A stretch of DNA of 20,000 nucleotides, taken from NCBI GenBank assembly GCA_016218805.1, contig JACRCW010000136.1:49539-69538 (forward strand), in the 5' to 3' direction. Below the pieces are notes generated by a model. The model ran no database searches, was not told where the DNA came from, and saw only the letters and a list, made by a program, of their open reading frames with translations. This document shows, piece by piece, positions 10,442 through 18,000 of the stretch (the stretch's first letter is position 1; each line of letters opens with the position of its first letter). Source of the stretch: Deltaproteobacteria bacterium. GTDB lineage: Bacteria > Myxococcota > JACRCW01. The position numbers were made by a program, and so were the translations under genes.

Positions 10442-11574
10442 GCGGGCCGCTCCGGGCCGACCATCCGCGGCACCGGGAGCTGATGCAGGTCGCGTTGAGG
10501 CGGGCGGTGCGCGCGCTTGGCCGCACGCGCCCCAACCCGTGCGTGGGCGCCGTGGTGGCGCGGGACGGGCACATCCTGTCCGTGGGCCACCACGCGCGCG
10601 CCGGCACCGCCCACGCGGAGGTCATTGCGCTGCGGAAAGCCGGTCCAGCCGCGCGCGGCGCAGACCTGTACGTGACCCTGGAGCCGTGCAACCACCACGG
10701 CCGCACGCCGCCGTGCACGGACGCGGTCCTGCAGGCGGGAATCGCCCGGGCGTTTGTTGCCATCCCGGACGACAACCCACGTGTGACCGGGGGAGGGATT
10801 GCCCGGTTGCGCGCGGCGGGCGTGGAAGTGCACGTGGGCCTGTTGGCCGGGCCAGCGCGGGACCTGGTCAGCGGCTTCTTCATGCGATGCGCAGCGGACC
10901 GGCCGGAGGTCATCCTCAAGGCCGCGGTTTCTGTCGACGGGCGCCTGGCCACCGCCGCGGGTCAGAGCGCGGGCTTGTCCGGCCCACGCGCGCACGCCTG
11001 GCTGCACCGGCTGCGGGACCGCGTGGATGGGATCCTCGTCGGCGCGGGCACCGTGGCGGCGGACAGCCCGCGGCTCACCGCGCGGCGCCCACCGCTGGGC
11101 GCCCGCGGCCGGCGTGACTGGGTGCGCATCATCGTGGACTCCGCGCTGCGCACCGCCGGAAACCCGGGTGTGTGGTCGGATCCGTCGGCTCCCGCACCCT
11201 GGTTTCTGTGCGCTGTGGATGCGCCGCAGGATGCCGTGGACGCACTGCGTACGCGCGGTGCCACCGTGCACGCTGTGCCGCGGACCGCGCGCGGTCTGGA
11301 CCTGCGCCAGGCCCTGGGCTGGCTGGGCGCACAGGGCCTCACACGCCTGCTGGTTGAAGGCGGCGCGCAGATCCACGGCAGCCTGCTGGCGGACCGCTTG
11401 GCGGATCGGGTGGCGCTGGTGGTCACGCCGCGCCTGTTGGGGGATTCCGCTGTGCCCATGGCACGTTGGAGCGGCCCGGACCAGTTGGACCACACCATTG
11501 TGCTGGAACATCCCACTTGGCGCCGCCTCGGCGAAGACACACTCTTGGAAGGGATGGTCCGATATCGAGAATGA
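10438..11574 (+). CDS. ribD: Bifunctional riboflavin biosynthesis deaminase/reductase RibD
   Basis: PNPCVGAV, HAE, TLEPCNHHGRTPPC, LKAAVSVDG, ILVGAGTV, PRLTAR and LLVEGG. ATGA overlap with nrdR. Confidence 0.95.
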   Translation: MSGPLRADHPRHRELMQVALRRAVRALGRTRPNPCVGAVVARDGHILSVGHHARAGTAHAEVIALRKAGPAARGADLYVTLEPCNHHGRTPPCTDAVLQAGIARAFVAIPDDNPRVTGGGIARLRAAGVEVHVGLLAGPARDLVSGFFMRCAADRPEVILKAAVSVDGRLATAAGQSAGLSGPRAHAWLHRLRDRVDGILVGAGTVAADSPRLTARRPPLGARGRRDWVRIIVDSALRTAGNPGVWSDPSAPAPWFLCAVDAPQDAVDALRTRGATVHAVPRTARGLDLRQALGWLGAQGLTRLLVEGGAQIHGSLLADRLADRVALVVTPRLLGDSAVPMARWSGPDQLDHTIVLEHPTWRRLGEDTLLEGMVRYRE

Positions 11575-11722
11575 AACCACGGCGACGCGTCACTCCCTGA
11601 CAGCGTTGCCGCAGGCAGAGCAGGAGGTGGGCAGCAGTAGGACGTCATGGCGCACCGCAGAATGGCCGCAGGCATCACACAGTCCGTTTTTGCCACTCCA
11701 CGTGCAGCCGGGTAAGAATGAA

Positions 11723-11738
11723 TGGCGTGGTTGGTGCG
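11723..11738 (+). promoter_or_regulatory. Candidate sigma54 (-24/-12) promoter for the 71-aa ORF
   Basis: TGGCGTGGTTGGTGCG has GG-N10-GC spacing and is a partial match to TGGCACG-N4-TTGC. Confidence 0.4.
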
Positions 11739-11826
11739 TACAAGAGAAGGAGGGCACGAATTGAGGCCTGGCTGGGAATCGGGAGACGCGCTGGGTCGTT
11801 GGAAGGGGTGAGGGCAGGAGGATGTC

Positions 11827-12042
11827 ATGTTGAGCGTGGAGGTCATTGACGCGTTGAGGCGCGAGGAAGAGCAGCGGCGCGAGGAAGCTGAGCGCTCCAT
11901 CGTGCGTGTCCCCGTGGACAGGCCTGAGGAGCAGGAGCGTCCCCGCGAAGAGGCCGCCGCATCCGAACAGCCCAGCCGTGGGGTGCTCGTCTTGGACATG
12001 AGCCGGGATGACACCGAAGAGTTCCGCATCGCCTCCTGGTGA
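11827..12042 (+). CDS. Small charged hypothetical protein (71 aa)
   Basis: Strong AGGAGG RBS just upstream and GC-rich third codon positions. Glu/Arg-rich helix, then RGVLVLDM. Confidence 0.75.
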   Translation: MLSVEVIDALRREEEQRREEAERSIVRVPVDRPEEQERPREEAAASEQPSRGVLVLDMSRDDTEEFRIASW

Positions 12043-12056
12043 AGGGCGACGCGGAT

Positions 12057-12072
12057 TGGCAGCCAGGTTGCG
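12057..12072 (+). promoter_or_regulatory. Candidate sigma54 (-24/-12) promoter upstream of the ECF operon
   Basis: TGGCAGCCAGGTTGCG is a near-consensus match to TGGCAC-N5-TTGC, in intergenic DNA and in the correct orientation. Confidence 0.5.
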
Positions 12073-12345
12073 CGTTTGATCGCGCGGGTTGTCGTCGCCT
12101 CAGAAATCCCCGCTGACCTCCGCAAGGCGCCCCCAGGGCGCCTTGTTCCGTTCCGGGGGCCCGCACGCCCACGTTCCAGCGCAAACGGTTCGCGGTGTGA
12201 AATGCGACCCCGCGGCCTGCGGCTGTTATGGTCCGGCTCCCATCAAGGGGGGCGTGCGCGGGATCACGGGCCGGGGTTTCGGCCTGCGGCGGCGACGGGG
12301 TCAGTCTTCTGGCAGCAGGAGACGGACCGTGAGGGCGTGGAAGCC

Positions 12346-12873
12346 GTGACGGACCAGGAGCTCCTCAGGAAGCTGTACGAAGCGTACGGGGCCACCGTCT
12401 ACCGCCGGTGCGTCTACCTGCTGCGTAACGACGAGGACGCACGGGACGCCATGCACGACGTGTTCATCAAGGTGTCAAGAAGTCTGGACCAGTTCCGCGG
12501 GGAAGCCAGCCCGCTCACCTGGATCACGCGGATTGCCACCAACCACTGCCTGAACATCATCCGGGCCCGCAAGGCAGCGTGGCACGAACAGTTCCGACGG
12601 TTCGTGGAGCACAAGGCCCAGGAGAATGGTCCGTCCCAGCGGCTGGTGGACAGAAACCAGTTTGTCCAGGTGGTGTTGGCGCTGTGCGACAAGGAAACGC
12701 AGGAAGCCGCCATCTACTACTTTGTGGACGAGATGACGCAGGAGGAAGTTGCCGGCGTCCTGGGTATTTCCGTCCCCACGCTGCGAAAGCGCCTGCGGAG
12801 CTTCATCGACACCGCGCGGCGCGAGCTCCTCAAGATTGACCCGGACCTGAGGCTCCGGGCCGCGCCCATCTGA
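12346..12873 (+). CDS. ECF-family RNA polymerase sigma factor
   Basis: Region 2 (LYEAYG..DARDAMHDVF..FRGEASPLTWITRIATNHCLN) and region 4 (MTQEEVAGVLGISVPTLRKRL). GTG start at 12346, alternatively 12337. Confidence 0.93.
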   Translation: MTDQELLRKLYEAYGATVYRRCVYLLRNDEDARDAMHDVFIKVSRSLDQFRGEASPLTWITRIATNHCLNIIRARKAAWHEQFRRFVEHKAQENGPSQRLVDRNQFVQVVLALCDKETQEAAIYYFVDEMTQEEVAGVLGISVPTLRKRLRSFIDTARRELLKIDPDLRLRAAPI

Positions 12874-12882
12874 GGAGGAACC

Positions 12883-13704
12883 ATGGAACCCCTCGAATTC
12901 GATCTGGCCGACCCGGCGGTTCCTCCTTGCGGGCGCACCCGTCACACGCTGCGCCGCCACTTTGCCGGCGAGCTGGACGCCGCCGCCCGGGCGGACCTGG
13001 ACAATCACTTGAAGGAATGCCTGGACTGCCAAGCCGTGCTTGCAGAATTGAAGAGCGATGAAGCGGCCTTCAAGGTGCACATCCCGTTTGCCCGGTTTGC
13101 GGACCAGCATGAGAAGCGGCTGGCGGCGGCAAGCCCGGTTCGCACGGGGCTCTCCAACTTCTGGAAGACGGTCTTTGGCGGCGGGGTTGCGCTGGCCGCG
13201 GCCATGACCGCGGCGGCGTTTCTCCTCATCCCGGCACCCCGCCCCGAAGACCAGCTCACGGAACGCATCAAGGGCGGCGGCATTGGCTTCCTGTTGCGCA
13301 CCTCAGACGGCGTGCGTGCCGGGCGGGACGGCGAAACGCTCAAGCCGGGCGACCAGATCCAGTTCTTTGTGAAAGCGCCGGAAGACACGGAGGTCGTCGT
13401 CGTCGGCGTGGATGGGAAGGGTGCGGTGAGCGTGTACCACGTGGGCCGCGTGGTGGCGGTGGACGGGCGCGCGGCACCGCTGCCGGACAGCGTGGTGCTG
13501 GATGATGCGGTGGGACCGGAGCGGTTCTTTGCCGTGTACGGGCGCGGGTTTGCGGCGGGTGAGCTCAAGGCGCTGGTGCAGAAGGCGGCGGAGAAGATGG
13601 TGGCTGACGGGGCGGACCTGCGGGCGGTGGAGACGCTGCCGCTGGACCTTCCGGCGGACAAGGCGCAGCAGAGCAGTGTCCACATTGTGAAGCTTGCCCG
13701 GTGA
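12883..13704 (+). CDS. Zinc-binding (ZAS/zf-HC2) transmembrane anti-sigma factor with a C-terminal beta-sandwich (DUF4384-like) domain
   Basis: GAGGAGGA RBS, HLKECLDC (HxxxCxxC), TM helix GGGVALAAAMTAAAFLLIP, then LKPGDQIQFFV..VVVVGVDGKGAVSVY..LDDAVGPERFFAV. The DUF4384 call is from recalled pattern only. Confidence 0.85.
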   Translation: MEPLEFDLADPAVPPCGRTRHTLRRHFAGELDAAARADLDNHLKECLDCQAVLAELKSDEAAFKVHIPFARFADQHEKRLAAASPVRTGLSNFWKTVFGGGVALAAAMTAAAFLLIPAPRPEDQLTERIKGGGIGFLLRTSDGVRAGRDGETLKPGDQIQFFVKAPEDTEVVVVGVDGKGAVSVYHVGRVVAVDGRAAPLPDSVVLDDAVGPERFFAVYGRGFAAGELKALVQKAAEKMVADGADLRAVETLPLDLPADKAQQSSVHIVKLAR

Positions 13705-13707
13705 CCC

Positions 13708-15438
13708 ATGGCGGCCGTGGGCACAGCGGGCGCGCGGGCAGGGCCAGGTGGGTGCTGGCTGCTGGCGCTGGTGATGACGGGGTGGGTGCTGCCGGCCACG
13801 GCCCGGGCAGACGTGGTGCGGCGCGCGCTGCTCATCTCACACGCGGACGGCGGCAAGGGCCTGCAGAAGCTGCGTTACGCGGACCGCGATGTTGCCAAGG
13901 TCAAGGACACGCTGGTGGACCTGGGCGGCTTCCTCCCCGGCGACGTGGACGTGGCCAAGGACGAGGACAGCCCGGGCGTGCTGCGCCGGCTGGCGGTCAT
14001 TGAGGAGCGGATCCGATCCGACAAGGCGGCGGGGCGGGAGACGCTGCTGCTGGTCTACTATTCGGGCCATTCCAAGGACGGGTTCCTGCGGTTGGGCGCC
14101 ACGCGCCTGGACCTGGACCTGCTGCGCGGCCTGCTGCAGGACAGCGGCGCGGATGTGCGCATTGCGGTGCTGGACAGCTGCGGCGCCGGTGAACTCACGC
14201 GCGAAAAAGGCGGCTCCCGCGCCCCGCCGCTCGTCGTCAGCGTGGATGACGCGCTCACCGCGCGCGGCCAGGTGATCATTGCATCGTCGTCCGAGACGGA
14301 GGCCAGCCAGGAGTCCGACGAGATCCAGGGATCCTTTTTCACGCATTACTGGGTCAGCGGGCTGCGCGGGGACGCGGACCGCAGCGGCGATGGGCGGGTC
14401 ACCCTGGAGGAGGCGTATGCCTACGCGTACGAACGCACCGTCTCCGCCACCCTGCACACGCGGGCCGGCATCCAGCATCCCACCTACCGGTACAACCTGC
14501 GCGGCGCGGGTGACGTCGTGCTGGCCAACCTGCGCGGCATCAGTTCAGGCGTGACGCTGCCGGAGGAGCTGGCGGGGCGGTTTGTGGTGTTTGACATGGA
14601 GCGGCAGCGCGTGGTGGCGGAGGTGGACAAGGCGCGCGGCAAGTCACTCCGGATTGCAGTGAAAGGCGGGACCTACGCCATCAAGAAGCGCGAGTCCGAC
14701 CACCTGCTCATGCAGCGCGTGAAAGTGGGCGGTGACGACGAGGTGGAGGTGGACCCCGCGCGCATGGAGAAGATCTCGTTTGACCGCGATTATGCCAAGG
14801 GCCCCATTGTGGAACTGGAGAGCGCGGGGCCGGGGCACGGGTTGTTCGGGTTTTCCTTCAGCGGCGGCGTGGGCGCACAGGCCTTCTATGACCTGCAACT
14901 GACCACGGGGTCCGGCGGTTCCACCACGGCCATCCCGGACAACAAGCTGCCGGAGCCCTTCAACCGCCTGCTGACGCGCCCCACCTTCCCCGCCACGCCC
15001 ATTGCCACCATTCAGCTTCGCTACCACGGGCTGTTCAACCGGCACTTCCTGCTGGGCGCGGACGTCAACTTTGGCCTGCTGAACTACAAGCTGTTGGTCA
15101 CCAACGGCGGTGAGGTCATCCCGTTTCACGCGCGGTTCTTCATGGCGGACCTGGGGTTTGCCCCCATGTTTGAACAGGAAATCTGGTGGTTCCGCGTTGC
15201 CGTGGGCCCGCGCATCTCCACGCTGTTCACCTGGCGGTACATCCTGTCGGATGCGCCCGTGCACCACCAGTTCTACCTCAACCTCGCACCCGGCGTGGCC
15301 GGGTACGCGGGCGTGGATATCCTGCGTTTCCTGCACCTGGAGCTGGGCTTCAGGGGCAACCTGAGCGTGTTCGCCATCGACGGGTTCAAGGCCATTGGCT
15401 ACGGTTCCGTCACGCTGGCTGCGCACGCCGACCTGTGA
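13708..15438 (+). CDS. Exported caspase-like (peptidase C14) protease with an EF-hand loop and a predicted C-terminal outer-membrane beta-barrel
   Basis: Signal peptide ending ATARA, RRALLI, LRYADRD, catalytic YYSGH (H121) and VLDSC (C158), GSFFTH, IQHP. The C-terminal ~200 aa has about eight amphipathic aromatic-rich strands. Confidence 0.88.
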   Translation: MAAVGTAGARAGPGGCWLLALVMTGWVLPATARADVVRRALLISHADGGKGLQKLRYADRDVAKVKDTLVDLGGFLPGDVDVAKDEDSPGVLRRLAVIEERIRSDKAAGRETLLLVYYSGHSKDGFLRLGATRLDLDLLRGLLQDSGADVRIAVLDSCGAGELTREKGGSRAPPLVVSVDDALTARGQVIIASSSETEASQESDEIQGSFFTHYWVSGLRGDADRSGDGRVTLEEAYAYAYERTVSATLHTRAGIQHPTYRYNLRGAGDVVLANLRGISSGVTLPEELAGRFVVFDMERQRVVAEVDKARGKSLRIAVKGGTYAIKKRESDHLLMQRVKVGGDDEVEVDPARMEKISFDRDYAKGPIVELESAGPGHGLFGFSFSGGVGAQAFYDLQLTTGSGGSTTAIPDNKLPEPFNRLLTRPTFPATPIATIQLRYHGLFNRHFLLGADVNFGLLNYKLLVTNGGEVIPFHARFFMADLGFAPMFEQEIWWFRVAVGPRISTLFTWRYILSDAPVHHQFYLNLAPGVAGYAGVDILRFLHLELGFRGNLSVFAIDGFKAIGYGSVTLAAHADL

Positions 15439-15493
15439 GGACCGCGCCGTGAAGAGCCTTCCTGTTTCCAGTGCGCGCCGGGTCGATAGGTCA

Positions 15494-16519
15494 ATGAGAC
15501 TGGTGGCGTTCCTTCTGTTGGCCGGGCTGACCGCGTGCAACTGGTCAGACGAAGACCTGCTGTTCCCGCGCCGCATCCCGGGAGACGCGGTGCACCTGCG
15601 GGTGCCCGGCGCGGACTACTACGAGTCCCTCACCGGCCAGGCGCTGCAGGGCCTCAACGCGTGCGACCGCGGCGATGCCAAGGACATCATCAGCTGCCAG
15701 GCGCGGGCCGTGGCGGGGATGCTCAACACGGTGACGTTCCAGCTCATTGGCCTGGTGAACAAGGTGATGGAGGCCCGGCCGTCCAAGACGCGTGCGGGCG
15801 TGCGCGTGTGGGGCCCCTGGTACGACGACGCCGAGGACCGCACCATCCGGTTTGAGCTGCGGCGTGATGCCAACGTGGGGGAGGGCGGGTTCCGCTACTG
15901 CGCGCACCTGGCCAGGGGGCGCAAGCAGGGGCCGTTTGTGGACCGCAACGTGGCCTGCGGGCGGGATGCGGATGGGTTTGTGGAGGTGTTTTCGGGGACG
16001 TTTTCACTGGAGGATGCGCGCGGGAATGACGTGGAGCGCAGCCTGGGCACCATGGACCTCAACCTCTCCAAGCAGCAGCGCGAAGGGCTCAATGACCGCC
16101 TGCGCCCGCTACAAAAGGGTCACTTTGTCTTCACGTACGACACCACGGGTGGCCAGCAGACCATTGGCATTGACTTGAGCGAGGTGGTGGACGACGACAC
16201 CGGGCTGCCGGCGAGCGCGCGGTACACCTACCACCGCGACGCGGCCGGGGCCGGGCTGATGACGCTGAGCCTGGAGATGGTGGGGCGGCTCTCGCAGGTG
16301 GACCTGCTGGCGCGGTGGAACGCGGTGGGCGCGCTGCGGGTGGATGCGCACGGGCAGGACGGAGTCACAGTGGACGTGCGCGGGTGGGAGTGTTCGGACG
16401 TGGACGGGGAGTTTGTGGGGAGGCATTACCAGTGGGATGCATCCCGGGACCTTCCCGTGGGCAACCCGAGTGAAGCGCAATGCGCGACGGACCTGCCGCC
16501 GACGCCCCCGGGGTGGTGA
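15494..16519 (+). CDS. Hypothetical beta-rich lipoprotein
   Basis: MRLVAFLLLAGLTAC lipobox (Cys15). Six further Cys residues and many predicted beta-strands. Confidence 0.8.
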   Translation: MRLVAFLLLAGLTACNWSDEDLLFPRRIPGDAVHLRVPGADYYESLTGQALQGLNACDRGDAKDIISCQARAVAGMLNTVTFQLIGLVNKVMEARPSKTRAGVRVWGPWYDDAEDRTIRFELRRDANVGEGGFRYCAHLARGRKQGPFVDRNVACGRDADGFVEVFSGTFSLEDARGNDVERSLGTMDLNLSKQQREGLNDRLRPLQKGHFVFTYDTTGGQQTIGIDLSEVVDDDTGLPASARYTYHRDAAGAGLMTLSLEMVGRLSQVDLLARWNAVGALRVDAHGQDGVTVDVRGWECSDVDGEFVGRHYQWDASRDLPVGNPSEAQCATDLPPTPPGW

Positions 16520-16716
16520 CCCGCACGCTGGTGCGGCTGTGGGGCGCGAGCCCGACGGGAGCGGTGTGTCTGGGGTTGGCGGCGGGCTTTGGCGTGTGGG
16601 CGGTTTCTGAGGTGTTCAGCGCGCGGATGGTGATGGCGGGGGTGTTGGGGGCAATAGCGGGTGGGCTGGTGGTGGCGGCGTTGGGGGCGTTTGTGGTTTC
16701 GGCGAAACGGTCGTAG
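16516..16716 (+). CDS. Small two-TM membrane protein (66 aa)
   Basis: GTG start overlaps the lipoprotein stop (GTGA). Two Gly-rich hydrophobic segments and a basic C-terminus (KRS). Confidence 0.55.
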   Translation: MTRTLVRLWGASPTGAVCLGLAAGFGVWAVSEVFSARMVMAGVLGAIAGGLVVAALGAFVVSAKRS

Positions 16717-16764
16717 TCCGGCGCCGTGCCTTCTGATTTCTGCACCACCTCCCACGGATGGCCC

Positions 16765-17238
16765 ATGACCGTGTTTCCCTCGCCCGACTCCGCTGTCACG
16801 GTTGCCACGCGCGCATGGCCTGGAGCCACACTGGTGGCCTTCAGCGCGCACGGCATGCACGCGGACGGTTCTCTCTCGTCGGACGCGCTGGTCTGTTTCC
16901 TGTTCCGTGCGGGGGGCGCGGTGCGCGCGCTGGCGTGGTCGGAATCGCGGTTCACGGTCTTGCCGCGGGGCCCGGTGCCGGATGAGTTGGTGCCTGAAGA
17001 AGCGTTGGGTCCGGTGGCGGCGGCGCCGGCGTTGGCGGCGGTGCTGTGCGGTCAGGCGGGGTTTGACGCGTGGGCGGGGCGGCCGGAGGACGCGTTGTGG
17101 GTGGGCGTGCGCGAAGGCCGCCGCGTGGCGATTCTCTCCACGGCGGGGTTCTTCACGTTGACGGTGGACGCGGTGGACCCCACGCAGGTGCTGAGCATGG
17201 ACTTTGAGCCGGTGCAGTTGCGTGCGGAGACGGTGTGA
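16765..17238 (+). CDS. Hypothetical protein
   Basis: Fills the gap with plausible codon usage and globular composition. Start uncertain (ATG 16765 or GTG 16726). Confidence 0.55.
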   Translation: MTVFPSPDSAVTVATRAWPGATLVAFSAHGMHADGSLSSDALVCFLFRAGGAVRALAWSESRFTVLPRGPVPDELVPEEALGPVAAAPALAAVLCGQAGFDAWAGRPEDALWVGVREGRRVAILSTAGFFTLTVDAVDPTQVLSMDFEPVQLRAETV

Positions 17239-17241
17239 CGG

Positions 17242-18000
17242 TCAGGGAGACCCGTAGGGATCATACGGGTCATACGACGTGACGGTGGGGCGGCGGCGGA
17301 ACGCCCAGAAGGCAATGAGCGCCGCCATCCCGATGACGGACAGCACGATCCACCAGGTGGCGCGGCTCCAGAAAGTCAGTGAATCCCGCAGCAGGATGGC
17401 GTCACGGTTTTCCGGGTAATAGACCAGGGCGGCGTCCACGGCTTCCTGGGCGGTCTTGGTTTCACCCTTTTCATAGGCAATCTGTGCCAGGCGGGTGAGC
17501 TTGAGGGAGGCGTCCTGTTCCTTGCGCGCGTCGGGGCTGCGGGCGGCGGCAATCTCGTAGTGCGCCAGCGCTTCTCCCAGGTTGGCCTTGTCCACGGCTA
17601 TCCGGGCGAGCGCGCGGTGCAGGTCAGCTTCCACGGGCTTGCGTTCCGGGAGGTCTCCTGCGACCTGCTTGGACAGTTCCAGCGCGTCATCAGCGGCTTT
17701 GAGGTCGCTCTTCTTGACGTGGTGGGCAGCGCACCGGATGTACGCATACCCGGCCTTCTGTTTGCGCTTCTTGAGGTCCTCGCCAATTTCACGCAGGCGG
17801 TCCAGGCGGGCGCACGTGTCCTTCCACTGTTTGGCCAGGTAGAAGTCATCCACCTGTTTCCACAGTTCCGCGGGCGTCTTGCCAAACGTGTTGGGGTCCT
17901 GCAGCGCGTATTCGTTGTCATCCTCATCCGCGCGGAGGGGGAGGGCGGCGCAGCACAGCGCCAGCGCCAGGCAGCCACCCACCAGGGCGGGGCGCTTCAT
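17242..18000 (-). CDS. Exported TPR-like protein with a C-terminal membrane anchor
   Basis: Signal peptide (MKRPALVGGCLALALCCAALPLRA), helical repeats (ALAHYEIA, AVDAALVYYPENRDA), TM helix WWIVLSVIGMAALIAFWAF followed by RRR. ATGA overlap with the recJ stop. Confidence 0.8.
   Translation of the reverse strand: MKRPALVGGCLALALCCAALPLRADEDDNEYALQDPNTFGKTPAELWKQVDDFYLAKQWKDTCARLDRLREIGEDLKKRKQKAGYAYIRCAAHHVKKSDLKAADDALELSKQVAGDLPERKPVEADLHRALARIAVDKANLGEALAHYEIAAARSPDARKEQDASLKLTRLAQIAYEKGETKTAQEAVDAALVYYPENRDAILLRDSLTFWSRATWWIVLSVIGMAALIAFWAFRRRPTVTSYDPYDPYGSP

Follow-up and report, generated by a model that had tools for sequence, protein, structure and literature searches.

What does an exported caspase-fold protease do in the operon of a sigma factor of the extracytoplasmic function (ECF) type and its membrane anti-sigma factor? 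This question is raised by positions 12346-16519 of a 20,000-nt stretch of DNA from Deltaproteobacteria bacterium (contig JACRCW010000136.1 of assembly GCA_016218805.1, positions 49,539-69,538 of the forward strand), referred to here in its whole length as the window. Four open reading frames (ORFs) follow one another on the forward strand, separated by 9 bp (sigma/anti-sigma), 3 bp (anti-sigma/protease) and 55 bp (protease/lipoprotein), as the original prediction for this locus had described them:

12346-12873, + strand: ECF sigma factor of 175 amino acids (aa), matching Sigma70_r2 (2.8e-14), Sigma70_r4_2 (4.3e-5) and TIGR02937 (5e-22)
12883-13704, + strand: single-pass anti-sigma factor, 273 aa, with a cytoplasmic HxxxCxxC domain, a membrane helix and a periplasmic DUF4384-like domain (from zf-HC2, hydropathy and DUF4384 matches in the family)
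13708-15438, + strand: exported C14 metacaspase-like protease, 576 aa, with a beta-sandwich and a C-terminal eight-stranded barrel (from PF00656, structure model and Foldseek)
15494-16519, + strand: lipoprotein of an unnamed family, 341 aa, with a lipobox, a disordered tether, one long helix and a large meander beta-sheet (from sequence and a model with a predicted local distance difference test, pLDDT, of 74.8)

Our answer is that the operon's own periplasmic protease, metacaspase-like and Lys/Arg-specific, is the predicted site-1 protease of the adjoining anti-sigma factor, and we assign this reading a probability of about 0.5. The same role had been proposed for it in the original prediction. 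Indirect support for it came from the co-occurrence of the genes, an R-x-K-G motif shared by protease and anti-sigma, a joint K/R change in both proteins, an Asp two residues before the catalytic Cys (Cys-2) and an RseP homologue in the genome; the cleavage itself is what we infer.

The third gene product was assigned to Peptidase C14 on the grounds of a Peptidase_C14 profile match (PF00656, 33.4 bits against a cut-off of 21.4), a predicted caspase fold and a His-Cys dyad. In its AlphaFold model (pLDDT 80.7) a caspase domain (residues 36-265) is followed by a beta-sandwich (270-356) and, beyond a linker of low confidence, by eight long strands (381-575), and Foldseek retrieved caspases with this model at E values of about 1e-7. 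The signal peptide and the intact dyad expected beforehand were both recovered, and a hydrophobic leader opens all 17 of 17 aligned relatives. The features of the exported enzyme are as follows:

13708-13809, + strand: putative signal peptide, residues 1-34 (...LPATA/RA), judged from the sequence itself
14068-14181, + strand: catalytic His121 to Cys158, with Asp156 at Cys-2; H121, D156 and C158 are each present in 88/88 relatives
14197-14214, + strand: T164-R-E-K167-G-G, conserved stretch opening a disordered loop, candidate for autoprocessing (pLDDT <50 at 167-182)
14515-14775, + strand: beta-sandwich domain, residues 270-356 (modelled as strands at 271-356, with a block pLDDT of about 83-93 for 271-350)
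14788-14802, + strand: D361-Y-A-K364-G365, second conserved basic-Gly site, a candidate for release, in the linker that leads to the barrel (pLDDT <50 at 365-378)

The nearest solved sequences were plant metacaspases 9, 4 and 1 (6e-6 to 2e-4; PDB 8a53, 6w8s and 7qp0), and the DSC of the protease aligned with the DSCHSG of metacaspase-4, D156 corresponding to the first D. In metacaspases and MALT1 the Asp at Cys-2 lines the pocket for a basic P1 residue, the position being occupied by Gln in Asp-specific caspases. D156 and the metacaspase kinship fit the predicted cleavage after Lys or Arg. Assignment to the EACC1-associated caspases (NCBIfam NF047832) was rejected, as the protease scored 71.3 bits, below the curated cut-off of 140. 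No Pfam family matched the beta-sandwich.

A putative target of such an enzyme lies in the anti-sigma factor just outside the membrane, as is evident from the arrangement of its features:

13006-13029, + strand: HLKECLDC, zinc-type motif of the HxxxCxxC form, read directly from the sequence
13168-13233, + strand: predicted membrane helix, residues 96-117, TVFGGGVALAAAMTAAAFLLIP (hydropathy maximum 2.02 over 19 residues)
13264-13275, + strand: R128-I-K130-G131, conserved candidate site-1 cleavage motif in the juxtamembrane linker

Positioned 5-20 residues past the membrane helix, R128 (70/85 family members), K130 (83/85) and G131 (80/85) are the only strongly conserved positions in the periplasmic part of the anti-sigma. 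The same motif recurs in the protease, where T164-R165-x-K167-G168-G occupies residues 6-11 past the catalytic Cys, with K167 nine past it; here K167 was found in 88/88, G168 in 86/88 and R165 in 77/88 relatives. Executioner caspases are activated by an intersubunit cut about 12 residues past the catalytic Cys, a position in the same loop as K167. Position 364 of the protease is K in 79 and R in 9 of the 88 relatives, and is followed by G365 in 87/88. Both basic-Gly sites of the protease open low-confidence loops of the model (167-182 and 365-378). The pattern R-x-K-G was counted over 65 non-identical modules and set against the mean of shuffled sequences:

anti-sigma: 54 observed, shuffled mean 2.5
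N-terminal part of the protease: 63 observed, shuffled mean 5.5
sigma: 0 observed, shuffled mean 1.9
barrel: 1 observed, shuffled mean 0.5
lipoprotein: 1 observed, shuffled mean 1.3

R-x-K-G thus occurs about once per anti-sigma and once per protease and is essentially absent from the other parts of the module. In a small sample of DUF4384 proteins from outside the module, 3/3 had no R-x-K-G before the domain, which implies that DUF4384 proteins do not generally carry the motif. K-G was not depleted in the other parts of the module, the lipoprotein having 21 K-G observed against 21.0 expected. A possible homology between the anti-sigma DUF4384 and the protease beta-sandwich was rejected, since the lone profile-profile match was the R-x-K-G-G stretch itself and was not significant (probability 0.4%, E 0.16).

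Furthermore, the basic residues of the two motifs vary together. When read from profile columns, K was present in both motifs in 107 of 134 non-identical protease/anti-sigma pairs. A FastTree phylogeny was computed on 85 rows, with 49 rows left out (those of L021-L100 whose number is not divisible by 4), and it resolved a deep sister clade of 19 rows with a local support of 100, in which the protease has x-x-R-G after D-x-C. Of the 18 R-type proteases in this clade, 16 have a partner anti-sigma in which x-R-G(-G) follows the helix. The anti-sigma of locus L151 is ambiguous (R-R-P), L124 within the clade has K in both the protease and the anti-sigma, and L119 has a hydrophobic residue in both, Leu in the one and Met in the other (RPLG and RWMG).

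The R-type clade (L124, L126, L127 and L137-L164; L126 corresponds to G024:C188:7700-15600) differs also in its anchor. Its proteases usually have no barrel, and the C-terminal tail of 12/19 members, compared to 0/120 other proteases, includes a strongly hydrophobic stretch of 19 residues (hydropathy ≥1.8); in L124 and L126 the tail resembles two membrane helices. The membrane anchor of the protease thus appears to be interchangeable.

The genes encoding these proteins form a conserved unit. A pattern scan of one genome per species yielded 306 protease relatives, and the best 80 loci were analysed. The first 20 of them supplied the profiles, and, the 80 being the closest relatives, the figures describe the window's subfamily. 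Sigma and anti-sigma genes were located upstream on the same strand in 69 of the 71 loci with at least 1.5 kb of upstream sequence, a lipoprotein gene was located downstream of the protease gene in 70 of 73 loci with downstream room (L092, L097 and L099 lacked it), and the complete four-gene set was present at 61 of 66 species loci with room on both sides. Since the same order and strand recur in other species, the four-gene arrangement is far beyond chance, and the gene order in myxobacteria mentioned in the original prediction recurs in many myxobacteria-like genomes. Mean pairwise identity, computed over 63 modules, differed widely between the parts:

caspase domain: 47.8%
sigma: 42.1%
beta-sandwich: 35.7%
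periplasmic part of the anti-sigma: 33.1%
barrel: 27.1%
lipoprotein: 27.0%
cytoplasmic part of the anti-sigma: 24.1%

Moreover, the association extends to distant paralogues. The protease family was detected in 27 of 41 related genomes searched, often in several copies, and a word-indexed search found at least 863 protease clusters at E ≤0.001 among 8000 candidates scored, their source names being just "caspase family protein" or "hypothetical". The related genome G024 has 21 caspase loci (L012 and L108-L127), 18 of them with an upstream anti-sigma gene on the same strand and 13 with an adjoining sigma gene; likewise, 31 of 40 weak-match loci from other genomes have an upstream anti-sigma gene on the same strand. 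The persistence of the triad in distant paralogues implies that sigma, anti-sigma and protease form the conserved core. The barrel and the window-type lipoprotein belong to the window's subfamily. The multiplicity of caspase loci in G024 is reminiscent of FecIR-type systems. Rows labelled Enterobacterales, Rickettsiales or Klebsiella, which are depositors' labels of metagenome bins, nested among Myxococcota rows in the FastTree phylogeny, and the range claimed for the module is the phylum Myxococcota.

In the mechanism that we propose, the protease would hang beneath the outer membrane as an inactive zymogen in the resting state. A signal from the envelope, for which the fast-evolving barrel and lipoprotein are possible sensors, would trigger self-cleavage of the zymogen after K167, and a cut after K364 would perhaps free the protease from its barrel. 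The protease would then turn to the R-I-K-G of the anti-sigma, located about 13 residues beyond the membrane helix, and a cut after K130 would strip off the bulky periplasmic domain. The next, intramembrane cut would be made by the RseP homologue, after which cytoplasmic proteases would finally liberate the sigma factor, which would bind RNA polymerase and drive its own TTTC-N17-GGGTC promoter as well as further targets. The genome encodes an RseP homologue (G000:C19:92724-93767; TIGR00054, 217.2 bits against 147.55). In the sigma-E system of Escherichia coli, RseA is cut in the periplasm by DegS (site 1) and then by RseP (site 2). The module shares with RseA/DegS/RseP a membrane anti-sigma with a periplasmic domain, the logic of site 1 followed by site 2, and the RseP homologue. 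Unlike DegS, a PDZ-regulated serine protease of the inner membrane, its candidate site-1 enzyme is an operon-encoded caspase-fold Cys protease that is predicted to be tethered to the outer membrane.

Several points weigh against this mechanism. The anatomy, the conservation and the motifs were observed, and every proteolytic step as well as the direction of signalling was inferred from them. A protease tethered to the outer membrane must reach a site about 13 residues above the inner membrane, for which release at K364 is our proposed solution. The conserved motifs could be structural elements instead of cleavage sites. The R clade is essentially one event, so that there are few independent co-changes, perhaps three, and K to R is the most conservative change possible; the co-variation of the basic residue is suggestive. 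Locus L118 is mismatched (K in the protease, M in the anti-sigma), as is L146 (R in the protease, K-S in the anti-sigma), and nine proteases of a third type have no D-x-C while their anti-sigmas retain K-G. Loci L060 and L065 encode the protease-barrel and the lipoprotein with no sigma or anti-sigma gene within 5 kb upstream. The barrel ends in Leu (...AAHADL) and not in the aromatic residue usual for outer-membrane barrels; a C-terminal aromatic residue is the signature of proteobacterial outer-membrane barrels for the beta-barrel assembly machinery, and in relatives of the protease this residue varies between L, F, H, R and P. Finally, co-transcription by itself is just as compatible with a protease that is an output of the sigma factor.

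The nine third-type proteases (L125, L128, L131, L148, L153, L155, L159, L160 and L165) have neither the Cys-2 Asp (L125 reads AACHSG) nor the R-x-K-G loop. They may have another specificity or be degenerate enzymes. Prediction of a complex between protease residues 34-362 and anti-sigma residues 116-273 gave scores of 0.02 and 0.06 (mark 0.32, used without controls), which speaks neither for nor against binding.

The last of the points above leads to the alternative that survives best, namely that the sigma factor has the protease-barrel and the lipoprotein as its outputs and would itself be freed in response to an unrelated signal and by another protease (of the DegS/Prc type, or none). The induced protease would then remodel or degrade envelope proteins or act as a suicide or defence effector. 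With four genes behind one conserved promoter and gaps of 9, 3 and 55 bp, the expression of the protease is at least coupled to that of the sigma factor, and ECF operons commonly include members of their own regulon. The retention of protease and lipoprotein without the sigma pair at L060 and L065, and the distance of the protease tether from the inner-membrane site, would also be accommodated. What this alternative leaves unexplained is why R-x-K-G, nearly absent elsewhere, has one copy in the linker of the anti-sigma and one in the loop of the protease, why the basic residue changed jointly in the sister clade, why DUF4384, a domain linked elsewhere to caspase-fold proteases, serves as the sensor domain of the anti-sigma, and why a single genome retains as many as 21 separate sets of sigma, anti-sigma and protease. 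We consider it unlikely.

A further possibility is that the protease domain and the anti-sigma DUF4384 bind each other without cleavage, in a contact relay of the FecA/FecR kind that passes on a change in the barrel or lipoprotein, with R-x-K-G as a pseudo-substrate that holds protease or anti-sigma in check and the true substrates elsewhere. The layout of outer-membrane barrel, periplasmic domain, single-pass anti-sigma and ECF sigma does resemble cell-surface signalling, and the fastest-changing parts are the barrel and the lipoprotein, with a mean identity of 27% compared to 48% in the caspase domain; rapid evolution is frequent in sensor parts. A motif that mimics a substrate may also act as an inhibitor, as securin does with separase (PMC11506125). 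This arrangement is nevertheless quite improbable, because all 88/88 relatives retain the dyad, the Asp at Cys-2 and the Lys of the loop, which argues for real catalysis, FecR and TonB-dependent receptor families were not detected in Pfam scans of the module, the eight-stranded barrel has neither plug nor signalling domain, and the candidate site is placed such that removal of the periplasmic domain leaves a short stub suited to RseP.

Returning to the protease as site-1 enzyme, we tentatively extend the proposal to whole genomes. Myxobacteria-like genomes may possess up to about twenty parallel, insulated trans-envelope lines, each made of a sigma factor, an anti-sigma factor and a private periplasmic metacaspase, with activation, self-release and the anti-sigma cut all set by one co-evolving basic-Gly code (R-x-K|G, or x-R|G in the sister clade). 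If this is true, caspase-type proteolysis would be a general, CRISPR-independent input to bacterial transcription.

At the cytoplasmic end of the proposed pathway, the first gene product is predicted to be an ECF (group 4) sigma-70 factor, since it consists of regions sigma-2 and sigma-4 alone and its family profile scored above cut-off (TIGR02937, 78.2 bits against 42.9). Sigma70_r2 likewise exceeded its threshold (53.1 bits against 24), and Sigma70_r4_2 was slightly below it (23.5 bits against 25.7). An alternative in-frame GTG start is present at 12337. Directly upstream lies the putative promoter:

12277-12302, + strand: predicted ECF-type autoregulated promoter, TTTC-N17-GGGTC, proposed from motif conservation upstream of the sigma gene

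Of 68 related loci, 43 have the pattern TTTC-N16-18-G[GT]GTC directly 5' of the sigma gene, compared to 0 of 68 reverse-complement controls; the spacer is 17 in 35 of the 43, and positions 12277-12302 are the sole match of the pattern on either strand of the window. The conserved TTTC/GGGTC motif and the adjoining anti-sigma gene fit predicted ECF autoregulation. Across the 6.4-Mb genome, TTTC-N17-G[GT]GTC matched 40 times, five of these with a stricter -10 element, and the scan of this genome for a regulon gave no interpretable target set. The genome is an uncultured one from groundwater. A look-up of sequencing data covering positions 12200-16600 listed five rows of DNA-type groundwater metagenomes, one of them probably the source, and none of RNA type.

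The anti-sigma had been predicted to be a single-pass protein of the zinc-containing anti-sigma (ZAS) type with an extracytoplasmic domain. This held for the window protein, whose N-terminal domain carries a ZAS-type HxxxCxxC with predicted zinc binding and gave a zf-HC2 score of 19.4 bits, below the cut-off of 22.2. As a feature of the family it failed: HxxxCxxC was held by just 27 of 85 anti-sigmas, which implies that zinc is not required across the family. DUF4384 (PF14326) matched the window anti-sigma weakly (14.3 bits, cut-off 27) and 10 of 16 family anti-sigmas at E ≤0.1 (best E 1.6e-6). A genome search with DUF4384 recovered three anti-sigmas of the family, of which two exceeded the 27-bit cut-off and one scored 22.6 bits.

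The fusion of the caspase domain to a barrel and the presence of a lipoprotein, both anticipated, were borne out by the protease model and by an LTAC lipobox, respectively:

14848-15432, + strand: OmpA-like eight-stranded beta-barrel, residues 381-575 (eight long strands in the model)
15527-15538, + strand: LTAC lipobox, read directly from the sequence

Foldseek matched the barrel to the membrane domain of OmpA (9fzc_A, template modelling (TM) score by target 0.72) and to 9a2m, and the C-terminus of the protease is modelled as an OmpA-like eight-stranded outer-membrane barrel. Hence the barrel suggested earlier stood as an anchor of outer-membrane type and not as a FecA-like transducer: it has eight strands, its model includes no plug or signalling domain, and no TonB-dependent receptor family was matched in Pfam scans of the module. 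The module has in common with FecA/FecR/FecI an outer-membrane barrel, a single-pass anti-sigma, an ECF sigma factor and many parallel copies per genome. Unlike FecA/FecR/FecI, it has a small OmpA-type anchor barrel in place of a TonB-dependent 22-stranded transducer, and no FecR domain, a family without matches in Pfam scans of the module.

No Pfam or NCBIfam family matched the lipoprotein, which belongs to a family of 1654 representative clusters at E ≤0.001. Its model has a disordered tether of 50 residues. Foldseek against the PDB gave no match to its fold at E ≤0.001. Wider VIA-align matches to maltoporin (Z 9.5, root-mean-square deviation 4.7, 182 aligned), TonB-dependent receptors and OspA (Z 8.1) were set aside as generic beta-sheet-wall resemblances, in a range that the tool calls common; an Atlas search gave only unnamed Myxococcota clusters and weak resemblance to LESV, YdgA and TamB (TM 0.44-0.52). 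Family alignment revealed a conserved acidic stretch, C-G-N/D-x-S-N/D-E-D-L-x-F, right after the lipidated Cys (15536-15580) within the otherwise disordered tether. An extra lipoprotein paralogue was located upstream of the sigma gene at 12 loci (L026, L028, L031, L032, L040, L044, L050, L052, L058, L078, L084 and L091), often followed by a hairpin, and the TTTC/GGGTC promoter was absent from that spot. At 10 loci (L038, L041, L048, L049, L051, L053, L062, L066, L087 and L098) a second paralogue was present downstream. At L060 and L065 a divergent lipoprotein gene, outer-membrane-like, stands upstream in place of sigma and anti-sigma.

The closest published system is DdvS/DdvA of Myxococcus xanthus (PMC11506125, PMC6061681). 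In DdvA a periplasmic TPR-CHAT caspase-fold domain is fused to the anti-sigma and faces its own juxtamembrane linker; autoproteolysis at this linker is a proposal, whereas RseP-dependent degradation of truncated DdvA was demonstrated (PMC11506125). Both systems come from the same phylum and combine a sigma factor of the ECF type and a single-pass zinc-type anti-sigma with a periplasmic His-Cys caspase-fold domain proposed to cut the linker just outside the helix, ahead of RseP. Unlike the fused protease of DdvA, proposed to act in trans within a dimer, the enzyme described here is a separate C14 protein with a barrel anchor. The window anti-sigma differs from DdvA also in its small DUF4384-like domain, and Pfam profiles of TPR or CHAT domains found no match in its 273 aa. 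The DdvS regulon is a CRISPR island that also encodes a cyclic-oligonucleotide-based antiphage signalling system. Unlike there, no CRISPR, cas or defence families were matched among the window ORFs scanned outside the module, which agrees with the CRISPR-independence claimed for it at the outset.

In the type III-E craspase, Cas7-11/Csx29 cuts the sigma-binding Csx30, which is accompanied by Csx31 and an RpoE-type sigma factor (10.1101/2022.08.17.504292, PMC10028731), and one group of Csx30 C-terminal domains is DUF4384 (10.1101/2022.08.17.504292). The likeness thus comprises a caspase-fold protease directed against a sigma-binding inhibitor, whose cut is a proposal in the present case, and the DUF4384 of one Csx30 group and of the window anti-sigma. 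Craspase is cytoplasmic, RNA-guided, CRISPR-linked and of the TPR-CHAT type, whereas the module is predicted to be periplasmic, is not CRISPR-linked and has a C14 protease. DUF4384 has also been described as a recurrent accessory domain of prokaryotic orthocaspases (PMC6426788, PMC7475262). With orthocaspases and plant metacaspases the window protease shares the C14 fold, the His-Cys dyad, D-x-C and the expected cleavage after basic residues; unlike the orthocaspases described, which are treated as cytoplasmic multidomain proteins, it is predicted to be exported, barrel-fused and tied to an ECF pair. Cytoplasmic EACC2-caspase conflict systems adjoin ECF sigma genes (PMC8195603), and CHAT proteins occur in the gene context of ECF54 (PMC8999054).

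Literature searches found no account of a C14 protease that is exported, joined to a barrel and linked to an ECF pair; subscription-only papers and supplements of ECF classifications, which could list this context, lay outside their coverage. The statement in the original prediction that experimental characterisation was lacking agreed with these searches as far as the module itself is concerned, and the fused caspase-fold anti-sigma DdvA is already published (PMC11506125). Altogether, the module is real and conserved and is apparently an unpublished split variant of caspase-fold anti-sigma control.

How most ECF sigma factors sense their signal is one question, and the role of bacterial caspase homologues beyond CRISPR and abortive infection is another. 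The module would join both questions and offers an operon-encoded, periplasmic caspase-fold candidate for a site-1 protease together with a predicted cleavage code. If confirmed, the mechanism would annotate thousands of genes (at least 863 protease clusters, 1654 lipoprotein clusters and 21 caspase loci in one genome) and would represent the split counterpart to the autoproteolysis proposed for DdvA. Another use of triads of sigma, anti-sigma and protease that have a short recognition code could be as orthogonal switches.

The genes flanking the module are mostly housekeeping or unrelated. A profile scan of the window ORFs identified accA and genes for a periplasmic binding protein, a Ser/Thr kinase and a YhgA-like protein of a transposase family, as well as nrdR and ribD, upstream; downstream there are recJ and, on the opposite strand, a gene for a small TPR membrane protein. 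Rfam families had no match within 11400-17400. Upstream of the module promoter, positions 11827-12042 (+ strand) encode a highly acidic ORF of 71 aa, and a GC-rich hairpin with a T-stretch, terminator-like in appearance, is located at about 12125-12150, some 80-110 bp past the stop of this ORF. Downstream of the lipoprotein gene, positions 16726-17238 (+ strand) encode an ORF of 170 aa without a family match. It is met convergently by 17242-18000 (- strand), whose product of 252 aa begins with a signal-like segment, matches TPR weakly and has a hydrophobic helix at its C-terminus.

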